Shown here: in pieces, positions 2,530-30,086 of the stretch
Layout of the letters: every line of letters begins with the position of its first letter
Numbering within the stretch: the stretch's first letter is position 1
Program-made: the position numbers and the translations under genes
Notes under the pieces: model-generated
The model's input: only the letters and a program-made list of their open reading frames with translations
Told to the model about the DNA's origin: nothing
Databases searched by the model: none
Assembly (NCBI GenBank): GCA_035390665.1
Contig: DAOOUC010000007.1
Span: 12,728-44,727 of the forward strand
Length of the DNA: 32,000 nucleotides
Direction: 5' to 3'
Source: an archaeon
Lineage (GTDB): Archaea > Iainarchaeota > Iainarchaeia > Iainarchaeales > CSSED10-239

Positions 2530-2903
2530 TGTTAAAAAATAAATTTATTTATTGGATACCAAGAATTTTATCAATATTATTTATTCTCTTTTTAGCAATG
2601 TTTTCTTTAGATGTTATTACTCCAGAGGCAAGTTTTTTGGAGATTGTGGGCGGATTACTAATTCATAATATCCCTGTTTTTATTTTAACTGCAATTTTAA
2701 TAATTTCTTGGAAATATGAAATTGTAGGTGCTATTGCTTTTATTTTGGGAGGATTATTATATCTTCTAAATGTTTTGATTACTATAATTAGGACACCACC
2801 ATTTGAATGGTTTTATTTATCTTGGATTTTATTTATTTCAGGACCAGCATTCTTGATAGGAATATTATTTTTAATTGGCTGGTTAAAAAAAAAGTCTAAG
2901 TAA
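2529..2903 (+). CDS. hypothetical integral membrane protein (about 4 TM helices)
   Basis: ORF track. Four long hydrophobic stretches ([61 protein letters not shown]). Confidence 0.65.
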
Positions 2904-4593
2904 ATTCATTTTCTGAAGTATTATTCCCGTAAAAGCTATTAAGTTTATTACTCATACAACTCATAATTGTTAAGCAATCTGTATCTGAAATATATTTTGT
3001 GTCTTGATAATTAATGTTGATAATATTATATTCATTTAATGGATCAATATCGTTTGGATAATCAGGAACAGGAGTAATTGGTTGTGGCATATTTTCAATT
3101 CTTCGTTGTAAATTTTCTTGTCTAATTCTTTCATTTTCTTGTCTTTGTATTTCAGCTTGATTTTGTCTTTCTAATTCTTGTTTAGCAATAGGAAGTAAAT
3201 CGTTTATTTCTTTACCTGATTTAGAAATTAATTCTCCAGAATATCCATAAATTATTGAACATTCTAATTTAGCATCTTCATCTTTTATCCATATTCTAAA
3301 ATATCCATTATTCCCCCAGTGTTCTCCCCAATTATTTTTTAATATCCAGTATTCTTTATTTCTAATCTTATCTGTGCCCCATCCAACAATAGTAACACCG
3401 TGAGCAAGGGTTGGAGGGTCTTCGTCTGATATTTTAGACCAAATTCCAGATTCAAAATTATAAAGAGACGGATAAAAATAAATAGATGTTGCTAGAGGAG
3501 ATAATTTAAGTGCTTCTTTAATATTATTGATTGTTTGAGTTTTATTTATAGTTCTACAATCAGAATTATCAATTCTAAAATGAGATTCTATAAAATACTT
3601 GGTATAGTTGTCATTTTTTCTAGGCAAATAAATTGAATTTTCAGTATCTGAATCAGAAGTATCTGGACAAAAATTAGAGTTTATATTATTAATATTTAAT
3701 CGGCCTTGACCAGTAATTAAAAGAGGGGTAATATTCATATTTGTTGTAGTTTTCTTAGTAGTTCTATTTAAATTAACAATTTCACAAGAATCATATGCCA
3801 AATAATTTAGTTGATTTTCTAAAGGAACACCAAAAGGAACTTCTCCAGCAGCTAAACTTAATTGGGTTCTTGTTTGTAAATGTTCTGTGCCTGCAATTAA
3901 TTTATTTTCTAAACCTAATTCTCCTTTTATTTTATTTTTTAAATAATTATTAAAATCACTATTTTGATTATAAGAGGCTAAAGATAAGAATTTAATGTAA
4001 TAATCTAATCCAGCACCACGACAGCCAATGAAATTAGAATAGGATATAAGATATTGTTCAGATAAGTTTAATTTATTATTTTCTGAAAGATTATCTTTTC
4101 TATTTATGTATCCTTCTAAAGCTCCAAGAATTGCAAAAGTGTTACAAGAACCACAAGTTGTTTGATTTTTACCTAGCGTCATATATGTTGCCCAATTTAT
4201 TTGGTCTTCAAATTCATAAATTGGAGCAGAAATGGTGGCATCGGTTAATAAGAATAATCCAGTATTCCTATTTTTTTCTTTTTTCATAGAATTTAAGTCA
4301 TCATATTTGTAGTTTTCTGGAAAGAAATTATTTTTATTTTCGGTATTAAAAATAGGCGATGGATCAGGATTTGCATTTGAATAAGAATCAATTTCATCAA
4401 TTCTTTGAGTGATTGGAATTTTCATAATTTCTTTAGAGTAATTTGTAGCAACCCAAGATGCATTTTGTTTTCTTAATTGTTCATTAATAATATCTGCTTG
4501 TGTTTTTTCTTTAGATATTGATAAAAATAACATTATAGAGATAATTATTATAGAAATAATAATTGCAATTATGGAGTTTAATTTTTTATTCAT
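2896..4593 (-). CDS. membrane-anchored papain-family (C1A) cysteine peptidase
   Basis: N-terminal anchor [17 protein letters not shown]. Papain catalytic motifs occur in canonical order: [13 protein letters not shown] (Gln-6 plus catalytic Cys), [11 protein letters not shown] (His), [20 protein letters not shown] (Asn-Trp). The C-terminus has a charged coiled-coil-like stretch [29 protein letters not shown]. Confidence 0.85.
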
Positions 4594-5401: not shown

Positions 5402-5782
5402 TTAACATTCTCCTTCTTTTAATATTGGTACATTGTCTGCTGTACATGCGTTTCCATAAGTAACTCCATTAACTCCACAAACAGGCATATATTCCATTGT
5501 ACAAACCTTTCCTTCTGTTGGAGGATATTGCCCTTTAAAACATTCTTCTCTATAAAGCTTCCATTCTTCACATTGAGATCCATCTTCAAATGTACAGATT
5601 CCATATTCTCCATGTTCTGAATTGACAATATTTAATGTACCTCCAAGATTTTTACAATAAACAGAAGCAGGGTTTGCAATTTCAGTTGTATTCTTTTCTG
5701 AAAAAATTAAAAATCCTGCAACAATTCCTGATACAAAAACAATTGCCATAATTATTCCTATTATTATTCTTTTATTTATCAT
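5402..5782 (-). CDS. membrane-anchored DUF333-like plus Kazal-like (serine protease inhibitor-type) domain protein
   Basis: N-terminal TM IIIGIIMAIVFVSGIVAGFLIF. NPASVYCKNLGGTL...GEYGICTFEDGSQCEEWKLYREEC matches the DUF333 pattern as I recall it. The C-terminal CTMEYMPVCGVNGVTYGNACTADNVPILKEGEC matches the Kazal core PVCG-x-[DN]G-x-TY-x-N-x-C. Its start overlaps the upstream gene by 4 nt. Confidence 0.75.
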   Translation of the reverse strand: MINKRIIIGIIMAIVFVSGIVAGFLIFSEKNTTEIANPASVYCKNLGGTLNIVNSEHGEYGICTFEDGSQCEEWKLYREECFKGQYPPTEGKVCTMEYMPVCGVNGVTYGNACTADNVPILKEGEC

Positions 5783-8086: not shown

Positions 8087-11000
8087 ATGAAATATACAAA
8101 AATACTATCTATAATTCTTATAATTTTAATATTGCCTTTTATCTTTGCAGAAGATGAAGGCAATTCTATTATTGTTCCTTTGGCAATAAATGGAACAGAA
8201 GGAGAATTAGATGTTTTTACAATACAAACAAACTATCCAGAAATAGAACTTGATGAATCTCAAGACCTAATTACAAGTTTTTCTTCTTTTGATCAGAATT
8301 CATCATTTTCTTTAAATTCTCAAGTTAATTATAAATCTCTTAATATTCCTCATTATTTCTTAAAAGAAAATCAAAATACTAAAAAAAGAATATATCCATT
8401 TAACCAAGGAAGAACTTATGTAATAAATAATTCTTCGCAAGAAATTGCAAAAGACAAAACCTTAGAGCTTAAATTAAATTTGTCTAATACCACACAAAAA
8501 GTTTATTTAATTATTGACCAAGCGCAATCAAATCCAATACCAGCTATGACTCAATTTGTAAATATTAGTTCTTCAACAATTGAGATTAACACCATTCCAA
8601 GATATCTAAAAATAAATAAAAGTTCAATTGTAAATGGCAAACTACTTTTAAATCTTAAAGCTAATATTCCTAATTTTTCTTTACAAATAATAGAATTGGA
8701 TAATAATCAAAAAGTTAGTGGAGTTTATAGTACAAATATTTTACAATTAGATTATGATTCTTTTAACAAATATACTTTATTTCAGATAAATAGAAACCTT
8801 ATTGAATTTTATTGTCCTTATTGTCATCTTAAAGACTATGGGATAAATGAAAATGGTTTTTCTTCTTGTGGCAAGTCTGTTTTTGAACAAGAGAAGAAAT
8901 CAATAACGGAATATTTAAGTGCGAAAGAAAATGTTTGTCTTTTACCAGATGGTTCAAGGATCTCTGGTTTTACAAATGAGTCCTTGGAATTATTTGGTTT
9001 GAATAGATTATATTTTGAATGGAATGATAATATTCCTTCTGATTTCTTTGATTATGGAGAATACTATGTAGATCAAGATCAACTAAGAATTGCAGTTTCT
9101 AAAAAATTAGATGAGATAAGTAATAATAATTATGTTGAAATTGAAACTACAAAATACAAAAAAGGAAAAAACACCTTAATTTCAAAAGTTGGAACAGATA
9201 TAGAATATGACTTGTCTGAAGTTACAGAACTTTCAACAAACAGTTCAATAAACGAGTCATTGGATTTTTCTATTGCAGTATTAAATTCAATTCCCGAAGA
9301 ATATAAAAAATTAACAATAATTGATTTAACAAATAATGAACCATCTGTAAGTGTTTCTGAATTTGATAGAATAATGCAAGAGATTTTAGTTTCAAATTAT
9401 TATAAAGTAACAGACTATCACACACATTATCAAATAACTCTTGAGAAATATTTAAGTTCAATTAGTAATTTTAAAATATCAAGAGCAAATAACGATATTT
9501 ATTCTAAACTTTTATATGGCCTAGAATATAAAACACAAGGTTATTCTAATGTTTATTTATCAGAAGGATTAAATTATTTTATATATAATATTAAACCATT
9601 TGGAGAAGATATAGAAGCAATTCTAAATAATGAGCACACACAATTGTTTGGAAACTATTGGAAACTAAATCTTTTAGATAATAACCAAACCACACAACCA
9701 AAAACAGTTATTGTAAATCTTTCAGAGATTGTTCCTGAAAGAAAAGAAGCAAATATTAGTTTTAATGATCCAACTACAGATTTATATGTTAATTATTATT
9801 CAGGAAATCAATATTTTTCTAATAATCCTTTATTTTTAATGCCACTAAATGTATTAAGTTACAATCGTGGAAACTTTTTTGAGAATACTACGTCTGTTAC
9901 TTCAAAGCAACCAGATATCATAAACAATTATAATAATCTCCAAGAAGGCAAAATTGTTTCTATAGATACAACAAGTTCTGATTTTGTAATTAATTTAACA
10001 AAACCAATAATTATTACTAAAGATACTGGAGAAGAAATTTTAGTAAAGTATTATAATGGTAGAGAATATGTTAATTATTCTAATAATTTAATAAAAGTAA
10101 ATAATTCAAGAGAAGACTTTCCAACTAAAGAAACAATTGTTATTTATCCGCCAAAGTCAGAATTTGTAAATTTTCCATTAATTGTTGAATCATCAACTCC
10201 TTTAATTTTTAATAAAGAAGTTATTGAAAATAAAGAGCAAGAAAAATATGTATATAGATTAAATTCAGAAACTCAGAATTTAAGCTTTTCTGAATTAATA
10301 AACAATATTTCAAATAATCAAACTTGTTTTTCAGTTATAGATAATAGTTTTTCTTTATGGATAAATGTTGATCAAGAATTAGATGTTACAAAATCTTATA
10401 GTTATCAAGAATTTGCAAGTGCTTTACAATCAGAAGAAAATAGTCCTTCTGAAAGTCTTGCAACAACTTTAAATCAAAACCCCGAAGTAAATACAACCTT
10501 TGCAGTATATACAATTGATGAATCTCAAAATCTTTACAAACAAGTACAAGCAGTTAATTCTTATATTCAAACAGAAACAGAGACAAGGAATTTAAAAATT
10601 TTAGAAAGTTATAATGAAGTATATCAAAAAGTATTAGAAAGTGAGCCTGCATTAAAAAAAGACTTTATAAATTTATTAAATTGTAATGAAACTTTAATTT
10701 GTAGGATTTCAAAAACAAGATTTACTCCAGAGGGTTCCTTCTTTGAGAGATTTAAAAATGTGTGCATAGACAATACTCCTACAGAATGTGTAAGTTTCTG
10801 GTCAAATCCAAAAGTAAGTTATTGTTCTGCATTTATTAGAAATTTTAATAATTATTATTTTGGATATAGATTTGATTCTGCAAATGCTTGGGATTTAGCT
10901 AAACAACAAAATAATAAAAGTATTTGGAAGGCAACAACCGGCTCTCTTTCGGAAAGTAGTTATGATTATTTAATTCCTGGTTCTGTTCTTGGAATTAAGC

Positions 11001-13060
11001 ACAATAATACAAGTTATTGGGATAAAGAATATAGTCATGTTGTTGTTTATTTAGGGAAAATGGGTTCTAGTCATTATATTATTCATTCTTGGTTAAATAC
11101 CTTAAAAATTGAAAAACTAGATGTTTTCTTAAAAACAACAGCCAGAGGAAAAAATGCATATGGGTATTATGAAGATGGGCAAATAAAAGAAGTAATGATT
11201 TCAAATAACCTTTATCAGAAATTAAGAACAAAAGCTAGAATTGAAGGAATTTCTCTTGGTTCTGTTGATTCTTCTATTTATCAAGGCATTGTTTCTAATT
11301 ACATATTAGATTCATTTAACAATTTTGAAATGGTTTCAACAACTCAGAGAAGCACACTAAATCAAAATATGTATCAGGAATTAGAGGTTGTTTATAATAG
11401 AATTTTAAATAAGGACTTTAGTATTTATTATAAAACAAACTATTCTAATAATTCAACACCAGAAGTAAATCAAAACATAAGATTAACACCAGGAGAGCCA
11501 ATGATAATAATTCTTGGCAAATATAAAAAAGTATTTTTAGTTAATAAAGAGAATGGAATAACTAATATTATTTCTGAATATCCAATAGCAACAGGAGTTA
11601 ATGGTTTTGGTTGTGTGAACGATAGTTTAAAAACACCAATTGGGCTATTTAAAATTGTACAAAAAGTTGGACAAAATTGTAGTCCTTTACAAGTTATAGG
11701 TGCTAATGGTTGTCAATATCAAAACGGAAACCCCGTACTTGCAAGTTATAATTCAGGAACAGCTAAAGTTGTAACCAGAAAACTTGTTCTTGATGGTCTT
11801 GAAAAAGAAAATATTGGTGTTGGTTGTGACACAGGTAATAGAAACACAATATATAGAGGGATATTTATACACGGAACAAATTATGAAAACTCAATGGGAC
11901 AACAAAGATCTCATGGTTGTATTAGAATGTTAAATAATGATGTTATTACTTTGTTTAACAATGTGCAAAACGGAACGTATGTTTATATTTATAATTCTGA
12001 AACAAGTTATTCAAGTCTTTTAGATTTAGAAAACAAATTAACAAATTCAGGAAACAACTTAGAATTCACATTAACTAGTGCAAGAAAACCATCAAATTCT
12101 AGAATTACAGCAACGAAGACAATGCAAGATGTTGACAATTATATTGATGAAAGAATAAATACATTTAGAATGTTAGATAATACAACAGGAGTAAGTCTAA
12201 GTTATGGTAGAGAATGTAACACAACAACCTTGAAGTTTCCTTGTTTTTTAAAAGAAGCCTTAGATGTAGAATATGATGCACATGTAATAAATCCACAATC
12301 TTCTGAGTTTAATTATATTGTTTTTAGAGTAACTAAAGCTTTTGGTTATACTTTAGAAGAAACAGCACAATTTTGGGGAAGTCTTTCTCAAGAGAGTGGA
12401 ACTTCAACAAACATAAGTGGATCACAATCACAATATGGTAATTCTCTTACAGGAAAACCAGCATATGGTATTGCACAAATAGAAAAAGCACCATGGTCAC
12501 AATATAATGCAAATAGATACACATTTGACGAAATGGTTCAAGATTTTAATTCTGTAGATTTATCTAGTATTATTGAAAGAGACCCTAGAATTGGAACCGT
12601 TACAGGCAGTAATAATAAAATAGACAGTAGAACAGAAATAATTGCTTTATTAGATTTAATTTGGACAAATAAAAGTAAATATGCATCTGTTGTTTTTTCT
12701 GCAGGATTAAAAAGATATATTGGTAGAAAGATAATTACAACTTCTCAAATTAATTACAATTCTGGAACAATAAGAGAGCCGTTTTGGCATGCTCATAGAA
12801 CGACATACGATCATTTAAATTCAATTAATTTTAATTTTGCTGTAATTTATAAATATAAATATACAGGAACTCAAAGAATGTATGATGGTATAAAAAGATA
12901 TTCTGGATTAGATGGCGGAGAAGACACAATTAAAACAATTGCATTAAAGCTTGCAAATTATCTTGCTTTTAAAAAAGAATATTATATGTATAAATATGGA
13001 ATAATAAATGGAAATCATTCTGATTTATTGGCAAGTATGATAAATGCAGGGATAATTTAA
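8087..13060 (+). CDS. giant secreted multidomain protein: unknown N-terminal ~900 aa, then NlpC/P60-like, YkuD L,D-transpeptidase and SLT-like (lytic transglycosylase) regions
   Basis: Signal peptide MKYTKILSIILIILILPFIFAEDE. YCSAFIRNF...LIPGSVLGI...EYSHVVVYLGKMGSSHYIIHSW follows the NlpC/P60 Cys/His pattern (nt ~10785-11115). TPIGLFKI...IFIHGT...QRSHGCIRMLNNDV is the YkuD core (nt ~11498-11995). SQESG...AYGIAQIE is SLT-like (nt ~12290-12750). Confidence 0.85.
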   Translation: MKYTKILSIILIILILPFIFAEDEGNSIIVPLAINGTEGELDVFTIQTNYPEIELDESQDLITSFSSFDQNSSFSLNSQVNYKSLNIPHYFLKENQNTKKRIYPFNQGRTYVINNSSQEIAKDKTLELKLNLSNTTQKVYLIIDQAQSNPIPAMTQFVNISSSTIEINTIPRYLKINKSSIVNGKLLLNLKANIPNFSLQIIELDNNQKVSGVYSTNILQLDYDSFNKYTLFQINRNLIEFYCPYCHLKDYGINENGFSSCGKSVFEQEKKSITEYLSAKENVCLLPDGSRISGFTNESLELFGLNRLYFEWNDNIPSDFFDYGEYYVDQDQLRIAVSKKLDEISNNNYVEIETTKYKKGKNTLISKVGTDIEYDLSEVTELSTNSSINESLDFSIAVLNSIPEEYKKLTIIDLTNNEPSVSVSEFDRIMQEILVSNYYKVTDYHTHYQITLEKYLSSISNFKISRANNDIYSKLLYGLEYKTQGYSNVYLSEGLNYFIYNIKPFGEDIEAILNNEHTQLFGNYWKLNLLDNNQTTQPKTVIVNLSEIVPERKEANISFNDPTTDLYVNYYSGNQYFSNNPLFLMPLNVLSYNRGNFFENTTSVTSKQPDIINNYNNLQEGKIVSIDTTSSDFVINLTKPIIITKDTGEEILVKYYNGREYVNYSNNLIKVNNSREDFPTKETIVIYPPKSEFVNFPLIVESSTPLIFNKEVIENKEQEKYVYRLNSETQNLSFSELINNISNNQTCFSVIDNSFSLWINVDQELDVTKSYSYQEFASALQSEENSPSESLATTLNQNPEVNTTFAVYTIDESQNLYKQVQAVNSYIQTETETRNLKILESYNEVYQKVLESEPALKKDFINLLNCNETLICRISKTRFTPEGSFFERFKNVCIDNTPTECVSFWSNPKVSYCSAFIRNFNNYYFGYRFDSANAWDLAKQQNNKSIWKATTGSLSESSYDYLIPGSVLGIKHNNTSYWDKEYSHVVVYLGKMGSSHYIIHSWLNTLKIEKLDVFLKTTARGKNAYGYYEDGQIKEVMISNNLYQKLRTKARIEGISLGSVDSSIYQGIVSNYILDSFNNFEMVSTTQRSTLNQNMYQELEVVYNRILNKDFSIYYKTNYSNNSTPEVNQNIRLTPGEPMIIILGKYKKVFLVNKENGITNIISEYPIATGVNGFGCVNDSLKTPIGLFKIVQKVGQNCSPLQVIGANGCQYQNGNPVLASYNSGTAKVVTRKLVLDGLEKENIGVGCDTGNRNTIYRGIFIHGTNYENSMGQQRSHGCIRMLNNDVITLFNNVQNGTYVYIYNSETSYSSLLDLENKLTNSGNNLEFTLTSARKPSNSRITATKTMQDVDNYIDERINTFRMLDNTTGVSLSYGRECNTTTLKFPCFLKEALDVEYDAHVINPQSSEFNYIVFRVTKAFGYTLEETAQFWGSLSQESGTSTNISGSQSQYGNSLTGKPAYGIAQIEKAPWSQYNANRYTFDEMVQDFNSVDLSSIIERDPRIGTVTGSNNKIDSRTEIIALLDLIWTNKSKYASVVFSAGLKRYIGRKIITTSQINYNSGTIREPFWHAHRTTYDHLNSINFNFAVIYKYKYTGTQRMYDGIKRYSGLDGGEDTIKTIALKLANYLAFKKEYYMYKYGIINGNHSDLLASMINAGII

Positions 13061-17224: not shown

Positions 17225-19162
17225 TTATTTATTTCTAGATATCCTTTTCTCTTTGATTTCTTCATGTAGTTCTTTTATGAACGCTTCAATTTTTTGTTCT
17301 CCAAGTATTTCATTGTCTCTTGTTCTTATGTTTACTGTTTGATTCTTTGCTTCGCTGTCTCCGACTACAAGGATGTAATTGATCTTTGAAAGCTCTGCAT
17401 TTCTTATCTTCTTGTTCATTGTTAAAGCATTATCGTCTATCTCAACACGAAGACCTGCTTCTTTTAATTTCTTAGAAACAAAAGATGCATAGTCATTATG
17501 TCTGTCAGCGATTGGAAGCACAATTACTTGGACAGGAGAGAGCCACAATGGAAACTTTCCTTCAAATTCTTCAACTAAGATTCCTAAAAATCTCTCAACA
17601 CTACCATAGATTGCTCTGTGTATCATTACTGGTCTCATTTTTTCATTATTTGGTCCTTCATAAGTTAAATTAAACTTCTCAGGCATTTGGAAATCAAGTT
17701 GTATTGTTCCACATTGCCAGTCTCTTCCAATTGCATCTTTTAAATGGAAATCAATCTTTGGTCCGTAGAAAGCTCCATCTCCCGGATTAAGCTTGTATTC
17801 TTTACCAAGAGTTTCAAGAACTTCTTTAAGAGTGTCTTCAGCTAAATCCCAAAGTGCTGGATCTCCCATTGCTCCTTCTGGTTTAGTTGAAAGTTCCATG
17901 TGATAAGAAAAACCAAAGACCTTGTAAACTTCGTCAAGAAGATTAATTAAATCAATAATCTCGTCTTTCATTTGATCTCTTGTACAAAATACATGAGCAT
18001 CGTCTTGAGTAAAGCATCTTACTCTAAACATTCCTGAAAGTGCTCCTGAAAGTTCATGTCTATGAACTAATCCAAATTCTCCTGCTCTTATTGGTAAGTC
18101 TCTATAAGAGTATTGATGTGCTTTATAGACTAAAAGATTACCAGGACAGTTCATTGGTTTAACTGCAAAGTCCTGATCATCTATTTTTGTAAAATACATG
18201 TTGTCTTTATAGTGATCCCAATGTCCTGATTGTAACCATAATGATTTGTTTAGAATCATTGGTGTTTTGTTAATCTCATAATTTCTTTCATAAAGTTTTT
18301 CTGTTAAAAACTCAACAAGTTTATTCCATATAATTGTTCCTTTTGTGTGAAAGAAAGGCATACCTGGTGCTTCTTCTTGGAAACTGAAAAGATCTAATTC
18401 TCTTCCAATCTTTCTATGGTCTCTTTTAGCTGCTTCTTCTAATCTAGTTAAGTATTCTTTTAGTTCTGTTGCTGACTGGTAAGATACACCATAGATTCTT
18501 TGTAATTGTTTATTCTTAGCATCTCCTCTCCAGTAGGCTCCTGATGCCTTTAATATTTTGAATGCTTTTATTTTTCCACTTGATGGGATGTGTGGTCCTC
18601 TACAAAGATCAATAAATTCTCCAAGCTTGTAGTAGGATAATTTCTCGCCTTTATCTTTAAGTTCATTTATCATTTCTGTTTTGTAAGGTTGGTTCTTGAA
18701 AAGCTCTAAAGCTTTGTTAAAATCAACTTCATACCTTTCAAACTTAATATCTTCTTTAATAATTTTATTTACTTCTTCTTCTATTTTTTGTAATTCTTCT
18801 TCAGTAAAAGCCCTATTGATATCTACATCATAGTAGAATCCTTCATCAATTGCTGGCCCAATAGCAAATTTAACTTCAGGGAATAATCTTCTAATTGCAA
18901 GAGCCATGATATGTGAAGAACTATGCCAAAAGATTTCCTTACCTTCTTTATCTTTATAAGTTATTACTAAAAAATCTGTGTCTGTGGTAATAGGTGTTTC
19001 TAAGTCTATCAACTTCTGGTTTATTTTAGCAGCCATAGCTACTCTGAGTAGTCCTTCTCCAATATTTTCAAGGATAACTTCCTTTGCTTTTTTTCCTGAT
19101 TCTATTTCTTTAATATTACCATCAGGAAACTTTACATTTATTTTCATTTCTGATTCCTCCAT
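17225..19162 (-). CDS. thrS: threonyl-tRNA synthetase, bacterial-type architecture (TGS + N2 editing + class II core + anticodon-binding)
   Basis: TGS-like N-terminus KINVKFPDGNIKEIESG; editing-domain motif FWHSSSHIMALAIRRLFP; class II core FRVRCFTQDDAHVF and RPVMIHRAIYGSVERF. The start may instead be the second ATG at 19147 (MKINV...), which has GGAGGA 8 nt upstream. Confidence 0.93.
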   Translation of the reverse strand: MEESEMKINVKFPDGNIKEIESGKKAKEVILENIGEGLLRVAMAAKINQKLIDLETPITTDTDFLVITYKDKEGKEIFWHSSSHIMALAIRRLFPEVKFAIGPAIDEGFYYDVDINRAFTEEELQKIEEEVNKIIKEDIKFERYEVDFNKALELFKNQPYKTEMINELKDKGEKLSYYKLGEFIDLCRGPHIPSSGKIKAFKILKASGAYWRGDAKNKQLQRIYGVSYQSATELKEYLTRLEEAAKRDHRKIGRELDLFSFQEEAPGMPFFHTKGTIIWNKLVEFLTEKLYERNYEINKTPMILNKSLWLQSGHWDHYKDNMYFTKIDDQDFAVKPMNCPGNLLVYKAHQYSYRDLPIRAGEFGLVHRHELSGALSGMFRVRCFTQDDAHVFCTRDQMKDEIIDLINLLDEVYKVFGFSYHMELSTKPEGAMGDPALWDLAEDTLKEVLETLGKEYKLNPGDGAFYGPKIDFHLKDAIGRDWQCGTIQLDFQMPEKFNLTYEGPNNEKMRPVMIHRAIYGSVERFLGILVEEFEGKFPLWLSPVQVIVLPIADRHNDYASFVSKKLKEAGLRVEIDDNALTMNKKIRNAELSKINYILVVGDSEAKNQTVNIRTRDNEILGEQKIEAFIKELHEEIKEKRISRNK

Positions 19163-19272
19163 TTTGTTGACACCTAAATTTTCCTATTACCACATAGTTA
19201 ATTTTAGGTAAGGTCTATAATATATTATATAAAACAGAAATAAATATAAATAAACAAGAAAAAGAGAAAAAG

Positions 19273-22200
19273 TTATTGTGGAAGAGGACTTTGAGTATTA
19301 CTTCTCAAGTATGGATAAGTTGTGCTTTCGGTCATATTCCAAATGGTTGAAAAATCCCAACTTGTAAATGTACTTTGTGCTTTCATTTCTGCTGTTGTTT
19401 TTCCAGTTCCTGTTGCACTTGTTGTTTGCCCAGAGGTATTCATATCCCAGAATCCATTAGAGACTGTTATGTATCCTGAACTATATCCAATAAGTCCGCC
19501 TATATTAGATCCACTTCCAAATACTGAACCATTAGAATAACTTCTATATACTGTTGCAGGAAGACCAGATACTTCACTATACATATATCCTACAAGTCCT
19601 CCTACACGACTTAAACCAATTATTGAATTTGTAGAATAACTGTCTTCAATTCTAAATCCGGTAGTAATGTGTCCTGCAATCCCTCCAATATAAGAACTTG
19701 TTCCAGAAACATTTCCTTTAGAATAACAATATGAAATTTTTGCAGTTGTATTGTATGATCCAGATGCCGATCCTATTATTCCTCCTATTTTTTGGTTTCC
19801 AGAAATATTTGAATCAGAATAACTTGTGGTAATTAATCCAGAACCCATATATCCTACAAAACCTCCTACATAATCGTGTGCAGAAATTATTAAATTAGAA
19901 TTACTATATGATATTGTTGCATAATTTGATTTTCCTGCAATTCCCCCAACATAATCATATCCTGTAATATATCCTGTAGTGTTACTTCTTGTAATTAGTC
20001 CATAATTTTGATTACCGGTAATTCCACCAGTATAGTTTTTTCCAATAATGTTTATATCTTCCAAAATTATATCAGATAATTGAGCATATCTATCTGTAGC
20101 TCCAAACAATCCAACATAATCTGTAGCCGAATTATTTATGTAAAGATTATAAATTTTATATCCGTTTCCTTCTAGTCTTCCATTAAATGGACTTGCTAAA
20201 GTTCCAATTGGTGTCCATCCACTTCCTGTGTTATATGGTGAAATATCTAAATCTATGTCATTTGCTAATTTATAATATGCTGTTCTACTTATATCGTTTC
20301 TTATATTATAAAGATCTTCTGCAGTATAAATCATTGTAGGTGTTGGTGGTGCTACTGATGTTGGTGCTGGAGACTGCGTATTATTTATTAAATATGGATA
20401 ACTTGAGCCTTCTGTAATTGCCCAAGGAGAAGTAAAATTATAGGTTGTAAATGTTGCTTGTTGTTTCATTTCTGTAGTAGTTTTTCCTGTTCCTGCTGAA
20501 CTTGTTGTTTGTCCAGAAGTATTTATATCCCAGAAACTATTTGATATTGTTGTGTATCCAGAACTATATCCTATTAATCCTCCAACATTATTATTATATG
20601 ATCCATAAACATATCCTGAAGAATAACTTCTATTTACTGTTGTATAAAGAGATGAAACATCACTATACATATATCCAACAAGCCCACCAGTACGACCTAA
20701 GCCAATTACTGAACTTGTGGAATAACTGTCTTCAATTCTAAATCCAGTAGTTATATGTCCTGCAAGCCCTCCAACATAAGATCCTGTTCCAGAAATATTT
20801 CCTTTAGAATAACAATATGAAATTTTGGCAGTTACATTGTGTGTTCCTGTTGCAGCTCCAACTAATCCACCTACATAATCGTCTCCAGAAATATTTGAAT
20901 CAGAATAGCTTGTCGTAATGGATCCAGTACTTGTATATCCTGAAATTCCACCAACATAGTCTGTTGCAGTAATTGTGGTGCTTGAATGACTTAAAGAAAT
21001 TTCTGCGTAAGAAGAGAGGCCAGTGATTCCTCCGATATAATTTGTTCCAGAAATATTTCCAGTAGTATAACTTCTAGTAACCAACCCGTAATTTTGATAA
21101 CCAGTTATTATTCCAACATAATTTTGTCCTCTAATATTTGCATCTTCAATAATTAAATCTTCAAATCTCGCATACCTATTTGTATATCCAAATAATCCAA
21201 CATAGTCTGTTGTTGGTTTATTGATATATAGATTCCTAATTTTATACCCATTACCATATAATATTCCGGCAAATGCATTAGATGAACTAGTACCTATAGG
21301 TGTCCAGCCTTCTCCTGTGTTATATGGTGAAACATTCAAATCAATGTCGTTTGCTAATTTGTAATAAGCAGTTCTACTTATATCATTTTTCATATTATAA
21401 AGATCTTCTGCAGTATAAATCATAATCGGTGCAGGTGGATCTATTGGTGTTGGTGTAGGAGATTGTGTATTAGTTCTTAAATATGGATAACTTTCTCCTT
21501 CTGTAATATTCCATGTTGTTGTGAAATTTAAAGTAGTATAAGTACTTTGTGATTTCATTTCTGCTGTTGTTTTTCCAGTTCCTGTCGCACTTGTTGTTTG
21601 TCCAGAGGTATTTACATCCCAAAAATTTCCAGTTAAGGTATAATAAGATCCTTTTAATCCAACTAATCCTCCAACATCTGCAGGATAAGATCCTCTAACA
21701 TAACCTGAAGAATAACTGTTTGTTATTGTTGTTTTATAGGACATAGAACTATATGCAGATAAACATCCAACAAGCCCGCCAATTCTATAATTTCCAATAA
21801 CCATTGCTGTAGAATATGAATTATTTACTGCAGTACTGTCTTCCATTATACCTATTAGTCCACCAACATTTAGATTTCCAGTTATTGTTCCATTAGAATA
21901 ACTTGAATTTATTGTTCCTGCAGTAGTAGTTCCTTTTATTTCTCCAATTAATCCACCAACATAATCATTTGCAGTTATTGTTATATCTGATTTACTATTT
22001 GAAACAGTAGCATAGGTCATATATCCTACAAGTCCACCAACATAATTATTTCCGGTAATATTTCCTGTAGCATAATTGGTATTATATGTTCCATAACTAA
22101 TATATCCTGAGAAGATTCCAACATAATTCTGGCCAATAATATTTGCATTTGTTAATCCAAGAGAACTAATATTTACTGCAGAACCATTTGTGTATCCGAA

Positions 22201-23247
22201 TAATCCAACATAATCTGTAGTTGATCTATTGATATATAAATTACTAATTTTTTTACTATTTCCATTAAATGTTCCAGTAAATTTTGTTGATGAATTTCCA
22301 AGTGGAGTCCATCCATTTCCTGTTGTCCATGTAATTTTGTTAGCGGTATCATAATAACTAGAATCGTCACTAAAATTTAAGTCTCTCATTAATGTGTATG
22401 CTCCTGCAAGAGTTGTTGAGTTTGTATCTATATAATCAAGATGTTCAAGATACCATATTTCTCCGTTTGTTGGAATTAAACCAATTCCGTCAGGAACTTC
22501 AGAGACATTTACAATTATTGTATATATTTTTGTACTTTCGTCTTCTGCAGTAACAGTATAATTTACTGGATTTGTAAAATCTTGAGCAACACCTGATTCA
22601 GGACTAATTGTTGCATCTTCAGAAATAACTATTGTTGGTGTAAGATTTGTAATTGTTGTACCATAAGCAAAAGAAAAAGTAATTGTGTTATTATTTATAT
22701 CAATTGTTCCATTAGTATCATTAATTGTAAAATAAATTATTTCTTTTTCTGATGATGATATTATTGGTGGCTCTTCAGTATTTGTATCTTGTCCACCATC
22801 TTCTGTTATATTAGAATTATTATTTAAGATATTAGTTAAGGTTATTTTTTTATTATCCAAAGTCAATAATTCAATTGCTATTTTATTTTCTGGTGGCAAT
22901 TTATTTAAAGAAAGTATTCCTGTTGCTCCAGGGGTAAGAGTAATTGGATTTTCTAATATTACATCTATATTAAAATTAGAATCTTCAGAATTACTTAATA
23001 TTTTATATCCTGTTATTGTCACAGTTTTTTTTGGACTTATATTTTTAAAAGATAAATTAGTGTTTTGTATTTTTGTAGATCCAATTATATAATCATTTGT
23101 TTCTTCAAATATAATTTCACTTTTATCTGTTCCTTTTGTTGTAAAATCTGTTCCCCAAGTTAAAATAATTGTTGTTAATATTACTGCAATAGAAATTAAT
23201 AAAATTACAGAGATAATTGGAGTGATTGCTTTTTTTCTAGTTATCAT
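19273..23247 (-). CDS. giant surface protein: archaeal type IV pilin-like N-terminal domain + Ig-like domain + three tandem GLUG-motif modules
   Basis: N-terminus MITRKKAITPIISVILLISIAVILTTIIL matches the archaeal Pilin_N / class III signal pattern (K-A/G then xSPVIxxVLLIxIxV). There are many YVGGLVG/IGGITG GLUG motifs. Each module ends FWD-x-NTSGQTTSATGTGKTTAEMK...YPYL-x-NTQSP. Confidence 0.88.
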   Translation of the reverse strand: MITRKKAITPIISVILLISIAVILTTIILTWGTDFTTKGTDKSEIIFEETNDYIIGSTKIQNTNLSFKNISPKKTVTITGYKILSNSEDSNFNIDVILENPITLTPGATGILSLNKLPPENKIAIELLTLDNKKITLTNILNNNSNITEDGGQDTNTEEPPIISSSEKEIIYFTINDTNGTIDINNNTITFSFAYGTTITNLTPTIVISEDATISPESGVAQDFTNPVNYTVTAEDESTKIYTIIVNVSEVPDGIGLIPTNGEIWYLEHLDYIDTNSTTLAGAYTLMRDLNFSDDSSYYDTANKITWTTGNGWTPLGNSSTKFTGTFNGNSKKISNLYINRSTTDYVGLFGYTNGSAVNISSLGLTNANIIGQNYVGIFSGYISYGTYNTNYATGNITGNNYVGGLVGYMTYATVSNSKSDITITANDYVGGLIGEIKGTTTAGTINSSYSNGTITGNLNVGGLIGIMEDSTAVNNSYSTAMVIGNYRIGGLVGCLSAYSSMSYKTTITNSYSSGYVRGSYPADVGGLVGLKGSYYTLTGNFWDVNTSGQTTSATGTGKTTAEMKSQSTYTTLNFTTTWNITEGESYPYLRTNTQSPTPTPIDPPAPIMIYTAEDLYNMKNDISRTAYYKLANDIDLNVSPYNTGEGWTPIGTSSSNAFAGILYGNGYKIRNLYINKPTTDYVGLFGYTNRYARFEDLIIEDANIRGQNYVGIITGYQNYGLVTRSYTTGNISGTNYIGGITGLSSYAEISLSHSSTTITATDYVGGISGYTSTGSITTSYSDSNISGDDYVGGLVGAATGTHNVTAKISYCYSKGNISGTGSYVGGLAGHITTGFRIEDSYSTSSVIGLGRTGGLVGYMYSDVSSLYTTVNRSYSSGYVYGSYNNNVGGLIGYSSGYTTISNSFWDINTSGQTTSSAGTGKTTTEMKQQATFTTYNFTSPWAITEGSSYPYLINNTQSPAPTSVAPPTPTMIYTAEDLYNIRNDISRTAYYKLANDIDLDISPYNTGSGWTPIGTLASPFNGRLEGNGYKIYNLYINNSATDYVGLFGATDRYAQLSDIILEDINIIGKNYTGGITGNQNYGLITRSNTTGYITGYDYVGGIAGKSNYATISYSNSNLIISAHDYVGGFVGYMGSGLITTSYSDSNISGNQKIGGIIGSASGSYNTTAKISYCYSKGNVSGTSSYIGGIAGHITTGFRIEDSYSTNSIIGLSRVGGLVGYMYSEVSGLPATVYRSYSNGSVFGSGSNIGGLIGYSSGYITVSNGFWDMNTSGQTTSATGTGKTTAEMKAQSTFTSWDFSTIWNMTESTTYPYLRSNTQSPLPQ
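19276..22470 (-). repeat. three in-frame tandem modules of about 1.08-1.09 kb within the GLUG gene
   Basis: Anchor ATTATAAAGATCTTCTGCAGTATAAATCAT occurs at 20305 and 21394 (offset 1089). Anchor TTTCATTTCT occurs at 19381, 20464 and 21553 (offsets 1083 and 1089). Modules 2 and 3 look about 85% identical at the DNA level by eye; module 1 is more divergent. Confidence 0.85.
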
Positions 23248-23334
23248 TATATAGTCACATTTCTAAAATAATTAGTAATAATAATATAAATACAAATATA
23301 ATATAAATAGTAATGTTAAAAAAAGAAAAAGAAA

Positions 23335-23358
23335 AATTGATTTTTAAAAAAATCAATT
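23335..23358 (-). terminator. AT-only 11-bp inverted repeat (AATTGATTTTT-AA-AAAAATCAATT) downstream of the Zn-ribbon gene
   Basis: Read directly. It lies 29 nt past the stop of 23387..23587 (-) and upstream of the GLUG gene start. The hairpin is weak (all A/T), so any terminator role is speculative. Confidence 0.25.
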
Positions 23359-23386
23359 AAATTGCTTAAGTATTATAGTTCTTACT

Positions 23387-26519: not shown

Positions 26520-26660
26520 ATGAAATCTAAGTTGAAGTCAAGTGGAAAGTTAAGATATTTTGTTTCAAGACAAAATAAGCCAAGATTAACTATACTAGAA
26601 ACAGAACTTGCAAAGTCTTGGTTAACAAAAGAAGAAGATGAAGCATGGAAGAATTTGTAA
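26520..26660 (+). CDS. putative antitoxin (46 aa) partnered with the MazF/PemK-like toxin
   Basis: Own translation: MKSKLKSSGKLRYFVSRQNKPRLTILETELAKSWLTKEEDEAWKNL. Its 3' end overlaps the toxin start by 16 nt (toxin ATG at 26645, antitoxin TAA at 26658-60), the classic type II TA layout. The acidic tail W-x-x-x-EEDEAW resembles antitoxin C-termini I recall, but no DNA-binding fold is recognisable. Confidence 0.5.
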   Translation: MKSKLKSSGKLRYFVSRQNKPRLTILETELAKSWLTKEEDEAWKNL

Positions 26661-26977
26661 AAGGACAAATTGTTGTTGTCCCTTTCCCTTTCTCAGATTT
26701 AACCGATTTAAAAAAAAGACCAGCAATGGTTATTAGTTCTCTTGAAGGAAATAATCTTATTCTTGCACAAATAACAAGTAGATATAGAACGCAAAAATAC
26801 TCATTAGATATTAAAATCAAAGACTTTGAAAAAGGAAATCTACATATAGATTCATATGTTAATTGCGATAAGATATTCACACTAGATAAAAACATAATAC
26901 TAAATTCTGTAGGAATATTAAAAGCAGAAAAAACATACAAAATTGTTTCTAAAATAATTGAAATTATTAAAAACTAA
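26645..26977 (+). CDS. PemK/MazF-family type II toxin (mRNA interferase-like)
   Basis: VKGQIVVVPFPFSDLTDLKKRPAMVISS...LILAQITS matches the MazF/PemK N-terminal pattern (G-D/Q-I-v-x-v-x-F-P-f-s-d...k-k-R-P-a-v-V). Confidence 0.8.
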   Translation: MEEFVKGQIVVVPFPFSDLTDLKKRPAMVISSLEGNNLILAQITSRYRTQKYSLDIKIKDFEKGNLHIDSYVNCDKIFTLDKNIILNSVGILKAEKTYKIVSKIIEIIKN

Positions 26978-27110: not shown

Positions 27111-30086
27111 ATGTTTATTAAAAAAAAGGGTCAAATTTCTATAGAAGCTTTAATTATTGTAAGTGTCTTAATTGTTGGAGGAATAATCTTTGCAACAGTT
27201 TATCTTGGACAAAGAAATAAACTTGCACAAGATCAATCTAGAGTTTTAGGAACAATTGATAATATTGATTATTCAGGAGATTTTGAAACAATTACAAATC
27301 CACCAACACCACCAGAGCCACCAAATCCAAATGAATGTTCACCTTATCCTGAGCATTGTTGTAATAATATCCCAGATTATGATGAAGATGGATTAGATTG
27401 TGGAGGTTCAGATTGTACGCCATGTGGAACACCAGAGTATGGTTGTGAAAATTTAGGAGAACCAACATTTAGTCCAGAGGGTGGAGTATTTAGTGAAACA
27501 GTAAATTTAAATTTAAATTATATTGATGAGTCTTGTCCAGATGCAGAAATACATTATACAATAGGAACAACTCCAGCAGAACCAACAACAAGTGATCAAA
27601 TCTTTGTTCCATTTTCTGGTCCAATAGAAATAACAAGTACACAAACGGTTAAAGCAAAAGTTTTTGCAGAAAGAAATGGAAACACATTATCTGGAGATAC
27701 TGCAACTAGATATTATGAAATAAATCCAAGTGTTTGTAATAAAATTCCAGGAACTGTAACATTTATTCCAAAAGGAACAACCTATAATTCTTCATTAAAG
27801 GTAGAATTAGAATATTATGAAAAAAACTGTTCAACATATGATATATTGTATACAATAAGTGATGTAGGTATTCCACCAGTAATAGAAAATATATATTCTG
27901 CACCTATAATAATAGCAAATAAAGATAAAAACATTACTGCACGTGTAAGAGTTTTAAATTCTTTAGGAACTTATGTTTATGGACTTCCAAAAACTGAAAT
28001 ATATACTTATAATAAAAATGGTTGTGATGGAACAATAGAACGTCCAACATTTAATCCAGTAGGGGGAACATATAATCAGCCAGTATATTTAAGTTTAAGT
28101 TATAATAACGCAACATGTTCAGATTATAATATTCATTATACAACAAACAATACAGAACCAACAACATTATCACCAATTGCTGGGAGAAATAAATCAATAA
28201 ATATTTCTGTAGATAAAAATATTACTGCAAAAGTCTTTGCAAGAAATTCATCTGGAATCATAGTTTCAGGACCATCAAAAAAAGAAAACTATAGAATAAC
28301 AGCAGGTGGTTCTGTGTTATGTGCAAGCGGAGTTGGCGGAGGAACAGGAACAATAACTGATCCAAAAATCATTTGTACTCCAGAGGAACTTAACGATATA
28401 AGATTTGGAGCTAATCTAGGAAAATATTATGTTTTAGGTCAAGATATAGATCTTAATCACTCAATTCTTTCAAATTTAGATTTAAGCTGGGGATATAGTT
28501 CAACATATGGTTGGACACCAATAGGTTTACAAACAAATGTATTTACTGGGTCTTTAGATGGTAACGGATATAAGATAAAAAATCTATATATTAATAGACC
28601 TACAAATTATAATGGAGAATATCTTGGATTATTTGGATATCTTGGTGGAACAAATCCAACAATTAAAAATTTGGAATTAGTTAATGCAAATATTACAGGA
28701 TATGGATATGTTGGAGGATTAGTAGGAGTTTCTCCAAATAATGTTAATTCAATTATAGATAATATAACAGTTACAAATATTAATCTAAATTCAAATAATT
28801 TATCAGCAGGTGGAATTATTGGTGCAAATTATAGAGGAGTATTACAAAATAGTACATCTACAGGAAACATAACTGGGGTAATGGTTGTAGGTGGATTAGT
28901 TGGATCCACAGGTCAATATTCTTCAATAATTAATAGTAATTCTAGTGCTTCTGTTTCAGGTACAGAAATAATAGGCGGGTTAGTTGGAATAGCTGGCGGA
29001 TCAATATTAAATAGTTATTTTGAAGGAGATGTTTCTGGAGATGAATATATAGGAGGTATTTCTGGATCTTTATCAACAGGAAACATAAATAACAGTTATT
29101 TTAATGGAACAGTAACAGGTGATACAGTTGTTGGAGGAATCTCTGGAAATGCAAATCAAACAGCAAAAATAATGTCTAGTTATTGTACTAATATTGCATC
29201 AATAAATGGACAAACAAAAATAGGCGGAATTGTAGGAAATATATCTTTAGGACAAAGTACTTTTTCTATAATTGAAGACAGCAATTTTAATGGAACAGTA
29301 ACAGGAATTTCAGAAATTGGCGGAATATTAGGTTATGGAAAGGCAACACAATCTGGTAGTTATTCTAGAACAATTATAAATTCAAATTTACTAAATGGCA
29401 CAATCACAGGCGATTCAAATGTTGGAGGAATAGTAGGATATAGTAATCAAACAAATATTGAAGGATGTAAGTCTAATGGAAACATAGTAGGTAAAAATAA
29501 TGTAGGTGGAATTACTGGACAAAGTTCTTCTCAACTAATATCAAATTCTTCTTTTTCAGGAACAATAACAAGCTCTGGTTCTGGAAATAATTTTGGAGGA
29601 ATAGCAGGATTTAATCAATCTAGTTATTTATTTAATAATTATTCTAAAGGAAATGTAACTGCAGGATCAAATGTAAATAATGTTGGTGGTCTTGTAGGGC
29701 AATGTAAATATGTTGCATCCAATATTTATAATAATTATTGTGTAAGTCCAGTAACTGGTGGTAATAATGTAGGTGGATTTATAGGATATTCAGAAAATTG
29801 TGGTGTTCAAAAAAATTATTCTACAGGAGCAGTAACAGGTACTACAAATGCAGGTGGATTTATTGGATCTATATCTGCTGGATTTTATAATTTTAATTAT
29901 TGGAATACACAAACATCAGGTAAAACAACAAGTGCAACAGGAACAGGAAAAACAACCGCCGAAATGAAACAACAAGCAACATTTGTTGGTTTTAATTTTA
30001 ATCCAGGAGATAATTTATGGAATATTAACGCAGGAAGCACATATCCATATTTAAGGCAAAATACACAAATGCCACTCCCAAATTAA
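27111..30086 (+). CDS. giant surface protein: class III (prepilin-type KG/QxSxE) signal + Cys-rich DCGG module + 3 chitobiase-C-like domains + GLUG-motif region
   Basis: MFIKKKGQISIEALIIVSVLIVGGIIF has KG then Q+1 and E+5, the DUF361/class III signal pattern. HCCNNIPDYDEDGLDCGGSDCTPCG follows. There are three roughly 95-aa repeats of type PTFSPEGGVF...AEIHYT...VKAKVFA (nt ~27441-28300) and many VGGLVG/IGGISG motifs. The C-terminus YWNTQTSGKTTSATGTGKTTAEMKQQATF...YPYLRQNTQMP is shared with the 19273..23247 gene. Confidence 0.88.
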   Translation: MFIKKKGQISIEALIIVSVLIVGGIIFATVYLGQRNKLAQDQSRVLGTIDNIDYSGDFETITNPPTPPEPPNPNECSPYPEHCCNNIPDYDEDGLDCGGSDCTPCGTPEYGCENLGEPTFSPEGGVFSETVNLNLNYIDESCPDAEIHYTIGTTPAEPTTSDQIFVPFSGPIEITSTQTVKAKVFAERNGNTLSGDTATRYYEINPSVCNKIPGTVTFIPKGTTYNSSLKVELEYYEKNCSTYDILYTISDVGIPPVIENIYSAPIIIANKDKNITARVRVLNSLGTYVYGLPKTEIYTYNKNGCDGTIERPTFNPVGGTYNQPVYLSLSYNNATCSDYNIHYTTNNTEPTTLSPIAGRNKSINISVDKNITAKVFARNSSGIIVSGPSKKENYRITAGGSVLCASGVGGGTGTITDPKIICTPEELNDIRFGANLGKYYVLGQDIDLNHSILSNLDLSWGYSSTYGWTPIGLQTNVFTGSLDGNGYKIKNLYINRPTNYNGEYLGLFGYLGGTNPTIKNLELVNANITGYGYVGGLVGVSPNNVNSIIDNITVTNINLNSNNLSAGGIIGANYRGVLQNSTSTGNITGVMVVGGLVGSTGQYSSIINSNSSASVSGTEIIGGLVGIAGGSILNSYFEGDVSGDEYIGGISGSLSTGNINNSYFNGTVTGDTVVGGISGNANQTAKIMSSYCTNIASINGQTKIGGIVGNISLGQSTFSIIEDSNFNGTVTGISEIGGILGYGKATQSGSYSRTIINSNLLNGTITGDSNVGGIVGYSNQTNIEGCKSNGNIVGKNNVGGITGQSSSQLISNSSFSGTITSSGSGNNFGGIAGFNQSSYLFNNYSKGNVTAGSNVNNVGGLVGQCKYVASNIYNNYCVSPVTGGNNVGGFIGYSENCGVQKNYSTGAVTGTTNAGGFIGSISAGFYNFNYWNTQTSGKTTSATGTGKTTAEMKQQATFVGFNFNPGDNLWNINAGSTYPYLRQNTQMPLPN

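Follow-up and report, generated by a model that had tools for sequence, protein, structure and literature searches.

The stretch analyzed here, hereafter referred to as the window, comprises 32,000 nucleotides of contig DAOOUC010000007.1 (GenBank assembly GCA_035390665.1, positions 12,728 to 44,727 of the forward strand; GC content about 28%) and harbors, at positions 19273-23247 of the reverse strand, an open reading frame (ORF) in which a complete archaeal pilin domain is fused to approximately 1170 amino acids (aa) of Ig-like and GLUG modules. As judged from FtsZ, whose nearest named relatives are those of Candidatus (Ca.) Iainarchaeum (86%), Ca. Forterrea multitransposorum (85%) and 'Diapherotrites' metagenome-assembled genomes (MAGs), the organism is a DPANN archaeon of the Iainarchaeota (Diapherotrites).

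Architecture and integrity of the fusion gene

The ORF starts with ATG and encodes 1324 aa with a computed mass of 141.5 kDa, in agreement with the roughly 140 kDa given in an earlier interpretation of this DNA (the sequence-only reading), and an isoelectric point (pI) of 4.7. Since an in-frame stop codon is located just 5 codons upstream of the ATG (the entire open frame comprises 1329 codons), the 7-aa leader described below is not a start-codon artefact. The protein is laid out as a leader (aa 1-7), a pilin module (8-146), a linker (147-165), a DUF5018 domain (166-250) and GLUG modules (251-1324), which correspond to the following features, all on the reverse strand:

19273..23247, (-): modular pilin gene as a whole, stop codon included (ORF; Pfam and NCBIfam domains)
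23227..23247, (-): class III signal leader, aa 1-7, MITRKKA (family logo; starts of solved chains; TIGR02537)
23125..23226, (-): hydrophobic alpha-1 helix, approximately aa 8-41 (AlphaFold2 (AF2) model; likeness to a small pilin of a T2SSF locus)
22810..23124, (-): pilin head, a seven-strand beta-sandwich, aa 42-146 (AF2; profile alignment; Foldseek)
22753..22809, (-): acidic, Pro-containing flexible linker, aa 147-165 (AF2 confidence score (pLDDT) <50; pI 4.05)
22498..22752, (-): DUF5018 Ig-like beta-sandwich, aa 166-250 (Pfam PF16410; PDB matches)
21448..22497, (-): GLUG beta-helix module 1, aa 251-600 (AF2; Foldseek; Pfam Glug)
20359..21447, (-): GLUG beta-helix module 2, aa 601-963 (alignment; 69% aa identity to module 3)
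19276..20358, (-): GLUG beta-helix module 3, aa 964-1324 (alignment with module 2)

The gene derives from a MAG, is internally repetitive and occurs in fragmented versions of 288, 398 and 601 aa on one ENA contig, all of which could point to a chimeric or mis-assembled ORF, or to a mis-called start, as the source of a false fusion. To this explanation we give next to no credence. Three independent assemblies contain an identical protein of 1324 aa, namely an NCBI MAG (HOW29680.1, labelled 'GLUG motif-containing protein [archaeon]'), a JGI contig and an ENA contig, and modules 2 and 3 share only 75% DNA identity with a longest exact shared run of 32 nt, which is too far diverged for the repeats to collapse; mis-assembly is thereby excluded. 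Furthermore, P0118, a 1271-aa protein with an N-domain that is 69% identical, shows the same architecture (and also matches Peptidase_M26_N), and around 25-30 other proteins likewise combine a pilin module with GLUG, as detailed below. Hence, the architecture of a complete archaeal pilin domain followed by Ig-like and GLUG modules is established. The fragmented version, in which the gene is split in three (P0079, P0080 and P0082) on a 14,408-bp ENA contig, could be either a pseudogenised allele or the outcome of sequencing frameshifts.

Two minor properties of the gene may be added. N-glycosylation sequons are mildly enriched in the protein (41, compared to 28.7 +/- 4.3 in shuffled sequences), which is suggestive only. 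Oligo-T runs and TATA-like AT-rich boxes are present in the intergenic regions up- and downstream of the gene and are consistent with a separate transcription unit, although they carry little weight in a genome of 28% GC.

The pilin module and its cargo

The N-terminus of the protein reads MITRKKAITPIISVILLISIAVILTTIIL and contains the motif MITRKKA/ITPIISVILL, with a predicted prepilin-peptidase cut between Ala7 and Ile8. TIGR02537, the NCBIfam model of the archaellin/type IV pilin N-terminal domain, matches aa 4-31 with 24.3 bits (cutoff 20). The same signal recurs in the protein family described below: in a logo of 121 aligned members, position -3 is occupied by Lys, position -2 by Lys or Arg (110/121) and position -1 by Ser, Ala or Gly (118/121), followed downstream of the cut by [ILV]-S-P-[LI]-I-A-T-I-L-L, and the leader has a median length of 8 aa. 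The family signal follows the archaeal class III pattern. Other large surface proteins encoded nearby carry ordinary Sec signals, so that the class III signal is a specific choice in this protein.

A profile built from 40 family N-domains (A3) and searched against all PDB sequences gave the P. calidifontis type IV pilus subunit 8fk7 as its best match (E 6.6e-9, profile positions 6-120), in an alignment that extends well into the beta head; further matches were 8rey (E 2e-5), 9myg, 8fj5 (H. volcanii), 8gi2 and Iho670, the top matches being archaeal filament subunits only. The deposited chains of the archaeal filament subunits 8rey, 5kyh and 3j1r start at the profile position that is equal to Ile8. 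An AF2 model of the pilin module based on the family alignment (pLDDT 85.9) consists of a helix at residues 9-41 (pLDDT ∼94) and seven strands spanning residues 55-141 (pLDDT 86-96), and a Foldseek comparison of this model with the PDB again placed 8fk7 first (E 1.7e-6), followed by 8fj5, 6nav and 6w8u, all of them archaeal type IV pili.

The TIGR02537, profile and Foldseek scores lie far above what chance would give. Taken together, the above-cutoff TIGR02537 match, the profile match to solved subunits, the AF2 model and the Foldseek top matches show computationally that aa 1-146 form a complete archaeal pilin with class III signal, hydrophobic alpha-1 and beta-sandwich head. The class III signal with hydrophobic helix and the pilin-like, beta-rich head proposed in the sequence-only reading were thus both recovered: the N-terminus qualifies neither as an ordinary Sec signal nor as a membrane anchor, and the head folds like a pilin.

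The pilin head is followed by the linker ITEDGGQDTNTEEPPIISS (aa 147-165, pI 4.05), which includes the acidic stretch EDGGQDTNTEEPP at aa 149-161 and is disordered in the AF2 model (pLDDT <50). DUF5018 (PF16410) matches aa 162-250 above its Pfam cutoff (45.2 bits, cutoff 38.2, E 7.4e-12). The C-terminal 1074 aa comprise three GLUG modules of 350, 363 and 361 aa, of which modules 2 and 3 share 69% protein identity and module 1 is 45-49% identical to either; the protein contains 17 [VIT]GG[LIF]xG cores, and Pfam Glug (PF07581) is found in 7 stretches (E 1.2e-28). The acidic linker, the Ig-like domain of bacterial surface-protein type and the three modules of roughly 360 aa claimed earlier were accordingly all found. 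Glug, DUF5018, DUF5018-rel and Pilin_N are the only Pfam families on the protein.

In an AF2 model covering aa 1-610, for which 27 family sequences were used (pLDDT 86.8), the pilin module, a disordered linker, an Ig-like sandwich (residues 170-248) and a solenoid of short strands (residues 265-600, pLDDT 92-98) follow one another. Foldseek related the N-terminus of this model again to 8fk7, the Ig-like part to BT_2081 (35% identity) and a levan-utilisome component from Bacteroides (8aa2), and the solenoid part to the IgA1 proteases of Gemella and S. pneumoniae (7uvk, E 3.8e-7; 6xja). The PDB sequence matches of the Ig-like domain were 8a9y/8aa2 chain T, labelled 'DUF4960 domain-containing protein', and BT_2081, and its nearest homologues (∼50% identity), where named, have bacterial names. 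The GLUG module is hence confidently modelled as a beta-helix like that of the IgA1-protease GLUG domain.

The streptococcal and Gemella IgA1 proteases (Peptidase_M26_N; 6xja, 7uvk) share the GLUG repeat and the beta-helix fold with the protein, which differs from them by the pilin module as its anchor and by the lack of an M26 catalytic domain. An identity as M26 IgA1 protease was rejected, as the protein contains no HExxH motif and no Peptidase_M26_C match in Pfam. Likewise, an identity as a PilY1/DUF2341 tip adhesin was rejected, as no such Pfam match was obtained at E <= 1.

Carriers of the pilin module and its proposed display on a pilus

When 1.84 billion representatives were searched exhaustively by HMMER for relatives of aa 1-150, a family of 176 clusters (50% identity) emerged at E <= 1e-3, among them 40 at E <= 1e-10. 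Save for a few truncated members, the match to the pilin module begins within the first ∼40 residues. Family members are 78-1295 aa long (median 418), and 109 of 148 exceed 300 aa. Pfam Pilin_N was found in 41 of the 111 members scanned, P0135 reaching the gathering score. The cargo encountered in 111 members by Pfam includes Glug (19), Laminin_G_3 (17), RCC1 (7), CHB_HEX_C_1/Fn3_assoc (7) and Lcl_C (7), and the family further contains Kelch, PKD and PT-HINT domains, NHL propellers and Listeria-Bacteroides repeats. The members that combine pilin and GLUG mostly carry one module and have around 500 aa, and the 1324-aa protein is an expanded version of these.

Two features of the family are noted in passing. 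Three members have PT-HINT/Hint/intein-splicing domains after the pilin module, and may thus use it to carry a polymorphic-toxin-like cargo. In addition, a Cys pair is common, with one Cys in a 'C-x-P-E' motif of a late strand and the other ending the head (A3 columns ∼150 and ∼180); it recalls the D-region disulfide of bacterial pilins, and both Cys are lacking in the 1324-aa protein and its closest relatives.

No description of the pilin-module family or of pilin-GLUG fusions was found in the literature on pilins, adhesins and GLUG in DPANN/Iainarchaeota. As a scan of the GTDB species representatives with the 6 closest sequences gave no relative, the modular pilin gene and the strain are not among these representatives.

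In relatives, a conserved locus present on at least seven contigs comprises a DRG GTPase, two T2SSF platform genes and three to four small pilins, an organization confirmed by a metagenome scan for T2SSF. Contigs with this platform locus are L008 (7107-13985), L010-L013, L096, L097 and L100. The small pilins (147-169 aa) are encoded directly downstream of the two T2SSF genes and have a closely similar alpha-1, and several small proteins with class III-like N-termini of the K-G/A/Q- or K-G/F-type (G/A denoting either residue and the last slash the cut) are encoded on the opposite strand. The assembly CAZPGO, whose FtsZ is 92% identical to that of the window, has the platform locus with small pilins that start MKFKKKAVSPLIATILLIVVAVILVTIVLTWGK, 59% identical to aa 4-37 of the 1324-aa protein, and in addition encodes a 451-aa modular pilin at a distance of 8.6 kb from it. 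The gene studied here is one of several for pilin-carried cargo proteins in this lineage. On L008, a 451-aa modular pilin with an FGE-sulfatase-like domain is encoded at 19108-20463.

The slot between the threonyl-tRNA synthetase (ThrRS) gene and the zinc-finger/FtsZ gene pair that holds the modular pilin gene (window 19163-23386) was compared among relatives whose FtsZ is 97-99% identical. L016 and L030 have no gene in it, L018 has methyltransferase remnants, and L017 has a gene for a 628-aa transmembrane-anchored CHB_HEX_C protein. Since the slot differs among such close relatives, the modular pilin gene is an accessory gene specific to the strain, lodged between housekeeping genes at a hotspot of variation.

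On balance, we favour a model in which the protein is a modular minor type IV pilin, probably displayed at the tip of a pilus or sparsely along the fibre. The precursor would insert into the membrane, a PibD/FlaK-type prepilin peptidase would cut off MITRKKA at Ala7/Ile8, and type IV pilus machinery would pack alpha-1 into a filament consisting mainly of ∼150-aa pilins with a similar helix. Because a cargo of ∼125 kDa per copy would be sterically demanding, the protein would be a low-abundance (minor) subunit, situated at the tip or at scattered positions in the fibre. A beta-helix adhesin or binding arm would in this way be projected tens of nanometres from the cell, where the cargo may bind another cell's envelope, a glycan or another substrate.

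Several observations weigh against this model. The gene is set between ThrRS and the zinc-finger/FtsZ pair, where there is no pilus locus, and no prepilin peptidase, T2SSE ATPase or T2SSF gene was found in the readable parts of the 44.7-kb source contig, that is, in the window and in the other-sample contigs that overlap both of its flanks. Scans of GTDB genomes and JGI metagenomes did not connect the strain with any pilus locus; of the 5 loci that a relative's T2SSF retrieved from the metagenomes, none stems from the samples holding the strain. Within 10 kb of the relatives' platform/pilin loci, neither a T2SSE ATPase nor a prepilin peptidase was seen. The small locus pilins resemble the 1324-aa protein most in the helix and less in the head. 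Concerning the module itself, Pfam Pilin_N (aa 6-47, 15.9-18.2 bits), a profile suggested with the sequence-only reading, fell below its cutoff of 25.2. The TM-scores of the model to solved pilins are modest (0.38-0.49), perhaps because helix and head stand at another angle to each other. Finally, no archaeal pilus is known to bear so large a subunit, and cleavage, polymerisation and adhesion are predictions.

The sub-threshold Pilin_N score and the lack of a peptidase gene nearby could also be taken to mean that the signal is never cleaved and that the helix is only a type II membrane anchor, the head acting as a membrane-proximal beta-sandwich spacer; that a transmembrane-anchored CHB_HEX_C protein fills the same slot in a close relative fits this explanation as well. 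We consider it improbable. The strict K-K-[SAG]/[ILV]-S-P motif and short leader of the 121 members point to a processing site under selection, the helix shares 59% identity with that of pilins whose genes adjoin platform genes, and the top profile and fold matches of the head are pilins and not generic spacers.

A minor pilin of this kind is most readily compared with the bacterial modular pilins, such as S. sanguinis PilB (von Willebrand factor A module) and PilC (lectin module) and CofB of enterotoxigenic E. coli, which are tip-displayed adhesins (Raynaud et al. 2021, PMC8179133). More than 1,200 of them were found through IPR012902, an 860-aa protein being singled out as the multi-domain extreme, and archaea are not mentioned in that study (PMC8179133). 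Like these proteins, the 1324-aa protein consists of a pilin module, a linker and domains not specific to pilus biology, with predicted tip display, adhesion or ligand binding and a very diverse cargo; ConA-like lectins (PF13385), which occur as bacterial modular-pilin cargo, are the second commonest cargo in the archaeal family. It differs in its signal of the archaeal K-A/I-T-P type, in a head that matches archaeal pilins, in its cargo of GLUG beta-helices and in its length of 1324 aa compared to 860 aa. The bacterial prepilin motif (IPR012902; G/F-T-L-x-E) does not occur in it, as A/ITPIIS lacks both Gly at -1 and Glu at +5, and the models that match its N-terminus, TIGR02537 and Pilin_N, are archaeal. 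On these grounds, the protein would work like a modular pilin but lies outside the bacterial (IPR012902) set.

With the solved archaeal pilins (8fk7, 8fj5, S. islandicus 6nav, P. arsenaticum 6w8u) the protein shares class III signal, alpha-1 and beta-sandwich head. These pilins have 131-145 aa without cargo, and are 15-19% identical to its pilin module.

In the sequence-only reading, the Sulfolobus bindosome had been named as the closest precedent. It is a more distant one, as the bindosome substrate-binding proteins are described as not evolved from pilins (PMC4371748), and the bacterial modular pilins are the closest. A related explanation nevertheless deserves consideration, namely that the protein, once cleaved, belongs to the cell coat, either within a pseudopilus or stalk that is short and close to the membrane or simply held by its helix, and perhaps captures substrates or glycans. 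Class III signals occur in archaea on many non-pilin proteins encoded away from pilus loci, as is the modular pilin gene, and a 2026 preprint with a catalogue of substrate-binding proteins that have class III signals suggests that 'functionalised' filament machineries serve to scavenge substrates (bioRxiv 10.64898/2026.04.22.720090). Moreover, the Ig-like domain resembles a levan-utilisome component, and genes neighbouring the modular pilin encode chitobiase C-terminal domains. The protein parallels the Sulfolobales bindosome and other class III substrate-binding proteins, which are large non-filament proteins on the prepilin-peptidase route and are often encoded away from pilus loci. However, these sit with ATP-binding cassette (ABC) transporters, whereas the 1324-aa protein has a full pilin head, and a complete head homologous to filament subunits, kept in at least 176 clusters, is hard to explain without filament packing. 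Overall, a bindosome-like location seems unlikely to us. Membership in a bindosome proper was rejected, as Pfam detects no substrate-binding domain and the adjacent genes are ThrRS and the zinc-finger/FtsZ pair, with no ABC transporter.

Large archaeal proteins with class III signals are not without precedent. Such proteins of 'well over 1000' aa were predicted in 2007 (Szabo 2007, in the part quoted in PMC4371748), and large adhesins of DUF2341/PilY-like type, located at tips, were proposed in archaeal pilus loci (Makarova 2016, PMC4858521). The 1324-aa protein resembles these FlaFind-positive giants and locus adhesins in exceeding 1000 aa with a class III signal, or in being large and adhesin-like, and is set apart from them by a complete pilin head, which was not shown for them, and by the lack of DUF2341/PilY1 homology.

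As for its position in the fibre, the flexible linker would be compatible with a 'bottle-brush' in which every subunit bears a 125-kDa arm, and a location in the filament body is held to be possible if the linker is flexible enough (PMC8179133). This arrangement is highly unlikely: three beta-helices of ∼360 aa per subunit would crowd sterically, the gene, being strain-specific and missing in relatives whose FtsZ is 97-99% identical, does not behave like that of a core structural pilin, and the lineage has dedicated small pilins in the platform locus.

Little is known of how DPANN archaea recognize other cells or surfaces and attach to them. The episymbiotic lifestyle given in the sequence-only reading is no more than a possibility for this organism. 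In episymbiotic Saccharibacteria/candidate phyla radiation (CPR) bacteria, type IV pili are reported to drive host association (PMC9894109, PMC11623550); these organisms are likewise ultra-small with reduced genomes, an analogy that is ecological only, as they are bacteria with bacterial pilins. If the modular pilin is displayed on a type IV pilus, it would represent a concrete, testable attachment device, accompanied by at least 176 clusters of candidate specificity determinants, and would show that the 'modular pilin' principle of bacteria holds in Archaea as well, with a cargo larger than the bacterial maximum singled out. Because GLUG, DUF5018 and CHB_HEX_C are typical of bacterial surface proteins, the family illustrates the inter-domain acquisition of modules onto an archaeal secretion/assembly route.

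A broader and rather doubtful extension of this model is that the pilin module serves throughout the Iainarchaeota/DPANN as a general display carrier, with interchangeable cargoes on one pilus machinery, the strain-specific cargo genes entering hotspots of the core genome and setting the partner cells or substrates that each strain can bind. Such cargoes may number dozens to hundreds and include GLUG beta-helices, ConA-like lectins, NHL/RCC1/Kelch propellers and HINT toxin-like modules. If true, the system would be an archaeal analogue of the swappable receptor-binding proteins of phages and offer a direct handle on DPANN host range.

Surface-protein genes in the neighbourhood

A second gene for a GLUG surface protein is located further along the window:

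27111..30086, (+): second GLUG surface protein, 991 aa, a separate gene (Pfam Glug E 1.6e-15; CHB_HEX_C_1)

Its N-terminus reads MFIKKKG/QISIEALIIVSVLIV and starts with QISIE after the cut. EppA substrates are characterized by the same Gln at +1 and Glu at +5 (PMC4371748), and Class_IIIsignal PF04021 matches below threshold (E 0.0027), so that the N-terminus is a possible EppA/DUF361-like class III-type signal; no relative of it was found in the PDB. This protein has no pilin head; a Pro-rich linker comes directly after the helix and is succeeded by a stretch rich in Cys, by CHB_HEX_C/Fn3_assoc repeats and by two GLUG modules that are 31-36% identical to those of the 1324-aa protein.

Contig L005, which stems from another sample, shares the 991-aa GLUG gene and extends past the right end of the window. 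Approximately 5.5 kb downstream of that gene, it encodes a 385-aa paralogue (P0176, L005 9591-10748) in which the pilin module and DUF5018 precede a C-terminal domain of ∼130 aa. At L005 4219-7176, a protein of 985 aa with a Sec signal is encoded, which contains a HEFAH metalloprotease-like motif, several CHB_HEX_C/Fn3_assoc repeats and a DUF5018-like segment. Together with the genes of the window, the L005 genes look like a surface-protein island.

Further secreted or surface proteins are encoded in the other part of the window. A YkuD L,D-transpeptidase domain (E 5.9e-17) is present in a 1657-aa Sec-signal protein (8087-13060, forward strand). This enzyme domain is of peptidoglycan type, although no peptidoglycan synthesis is expected in the archaeon, and it may act on the wall of a bacterial partner or on something else. 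Bacterial or eukaryotic-type domains are also present in a membrane-anchored papain-family (C1) protease (2896-4593, reverse strand) and in a small protein with DUF333 and a Kazal-type inhibitor domain (5402-5782, reverse strand). Between FtsZ and the second GLUG gene lies a MazF/PemK toxin gene (26645-26977, forward strand), whose start is overlapped by an ORF of 46 aa (L001 5385-5525) that may encode the antitoxin.

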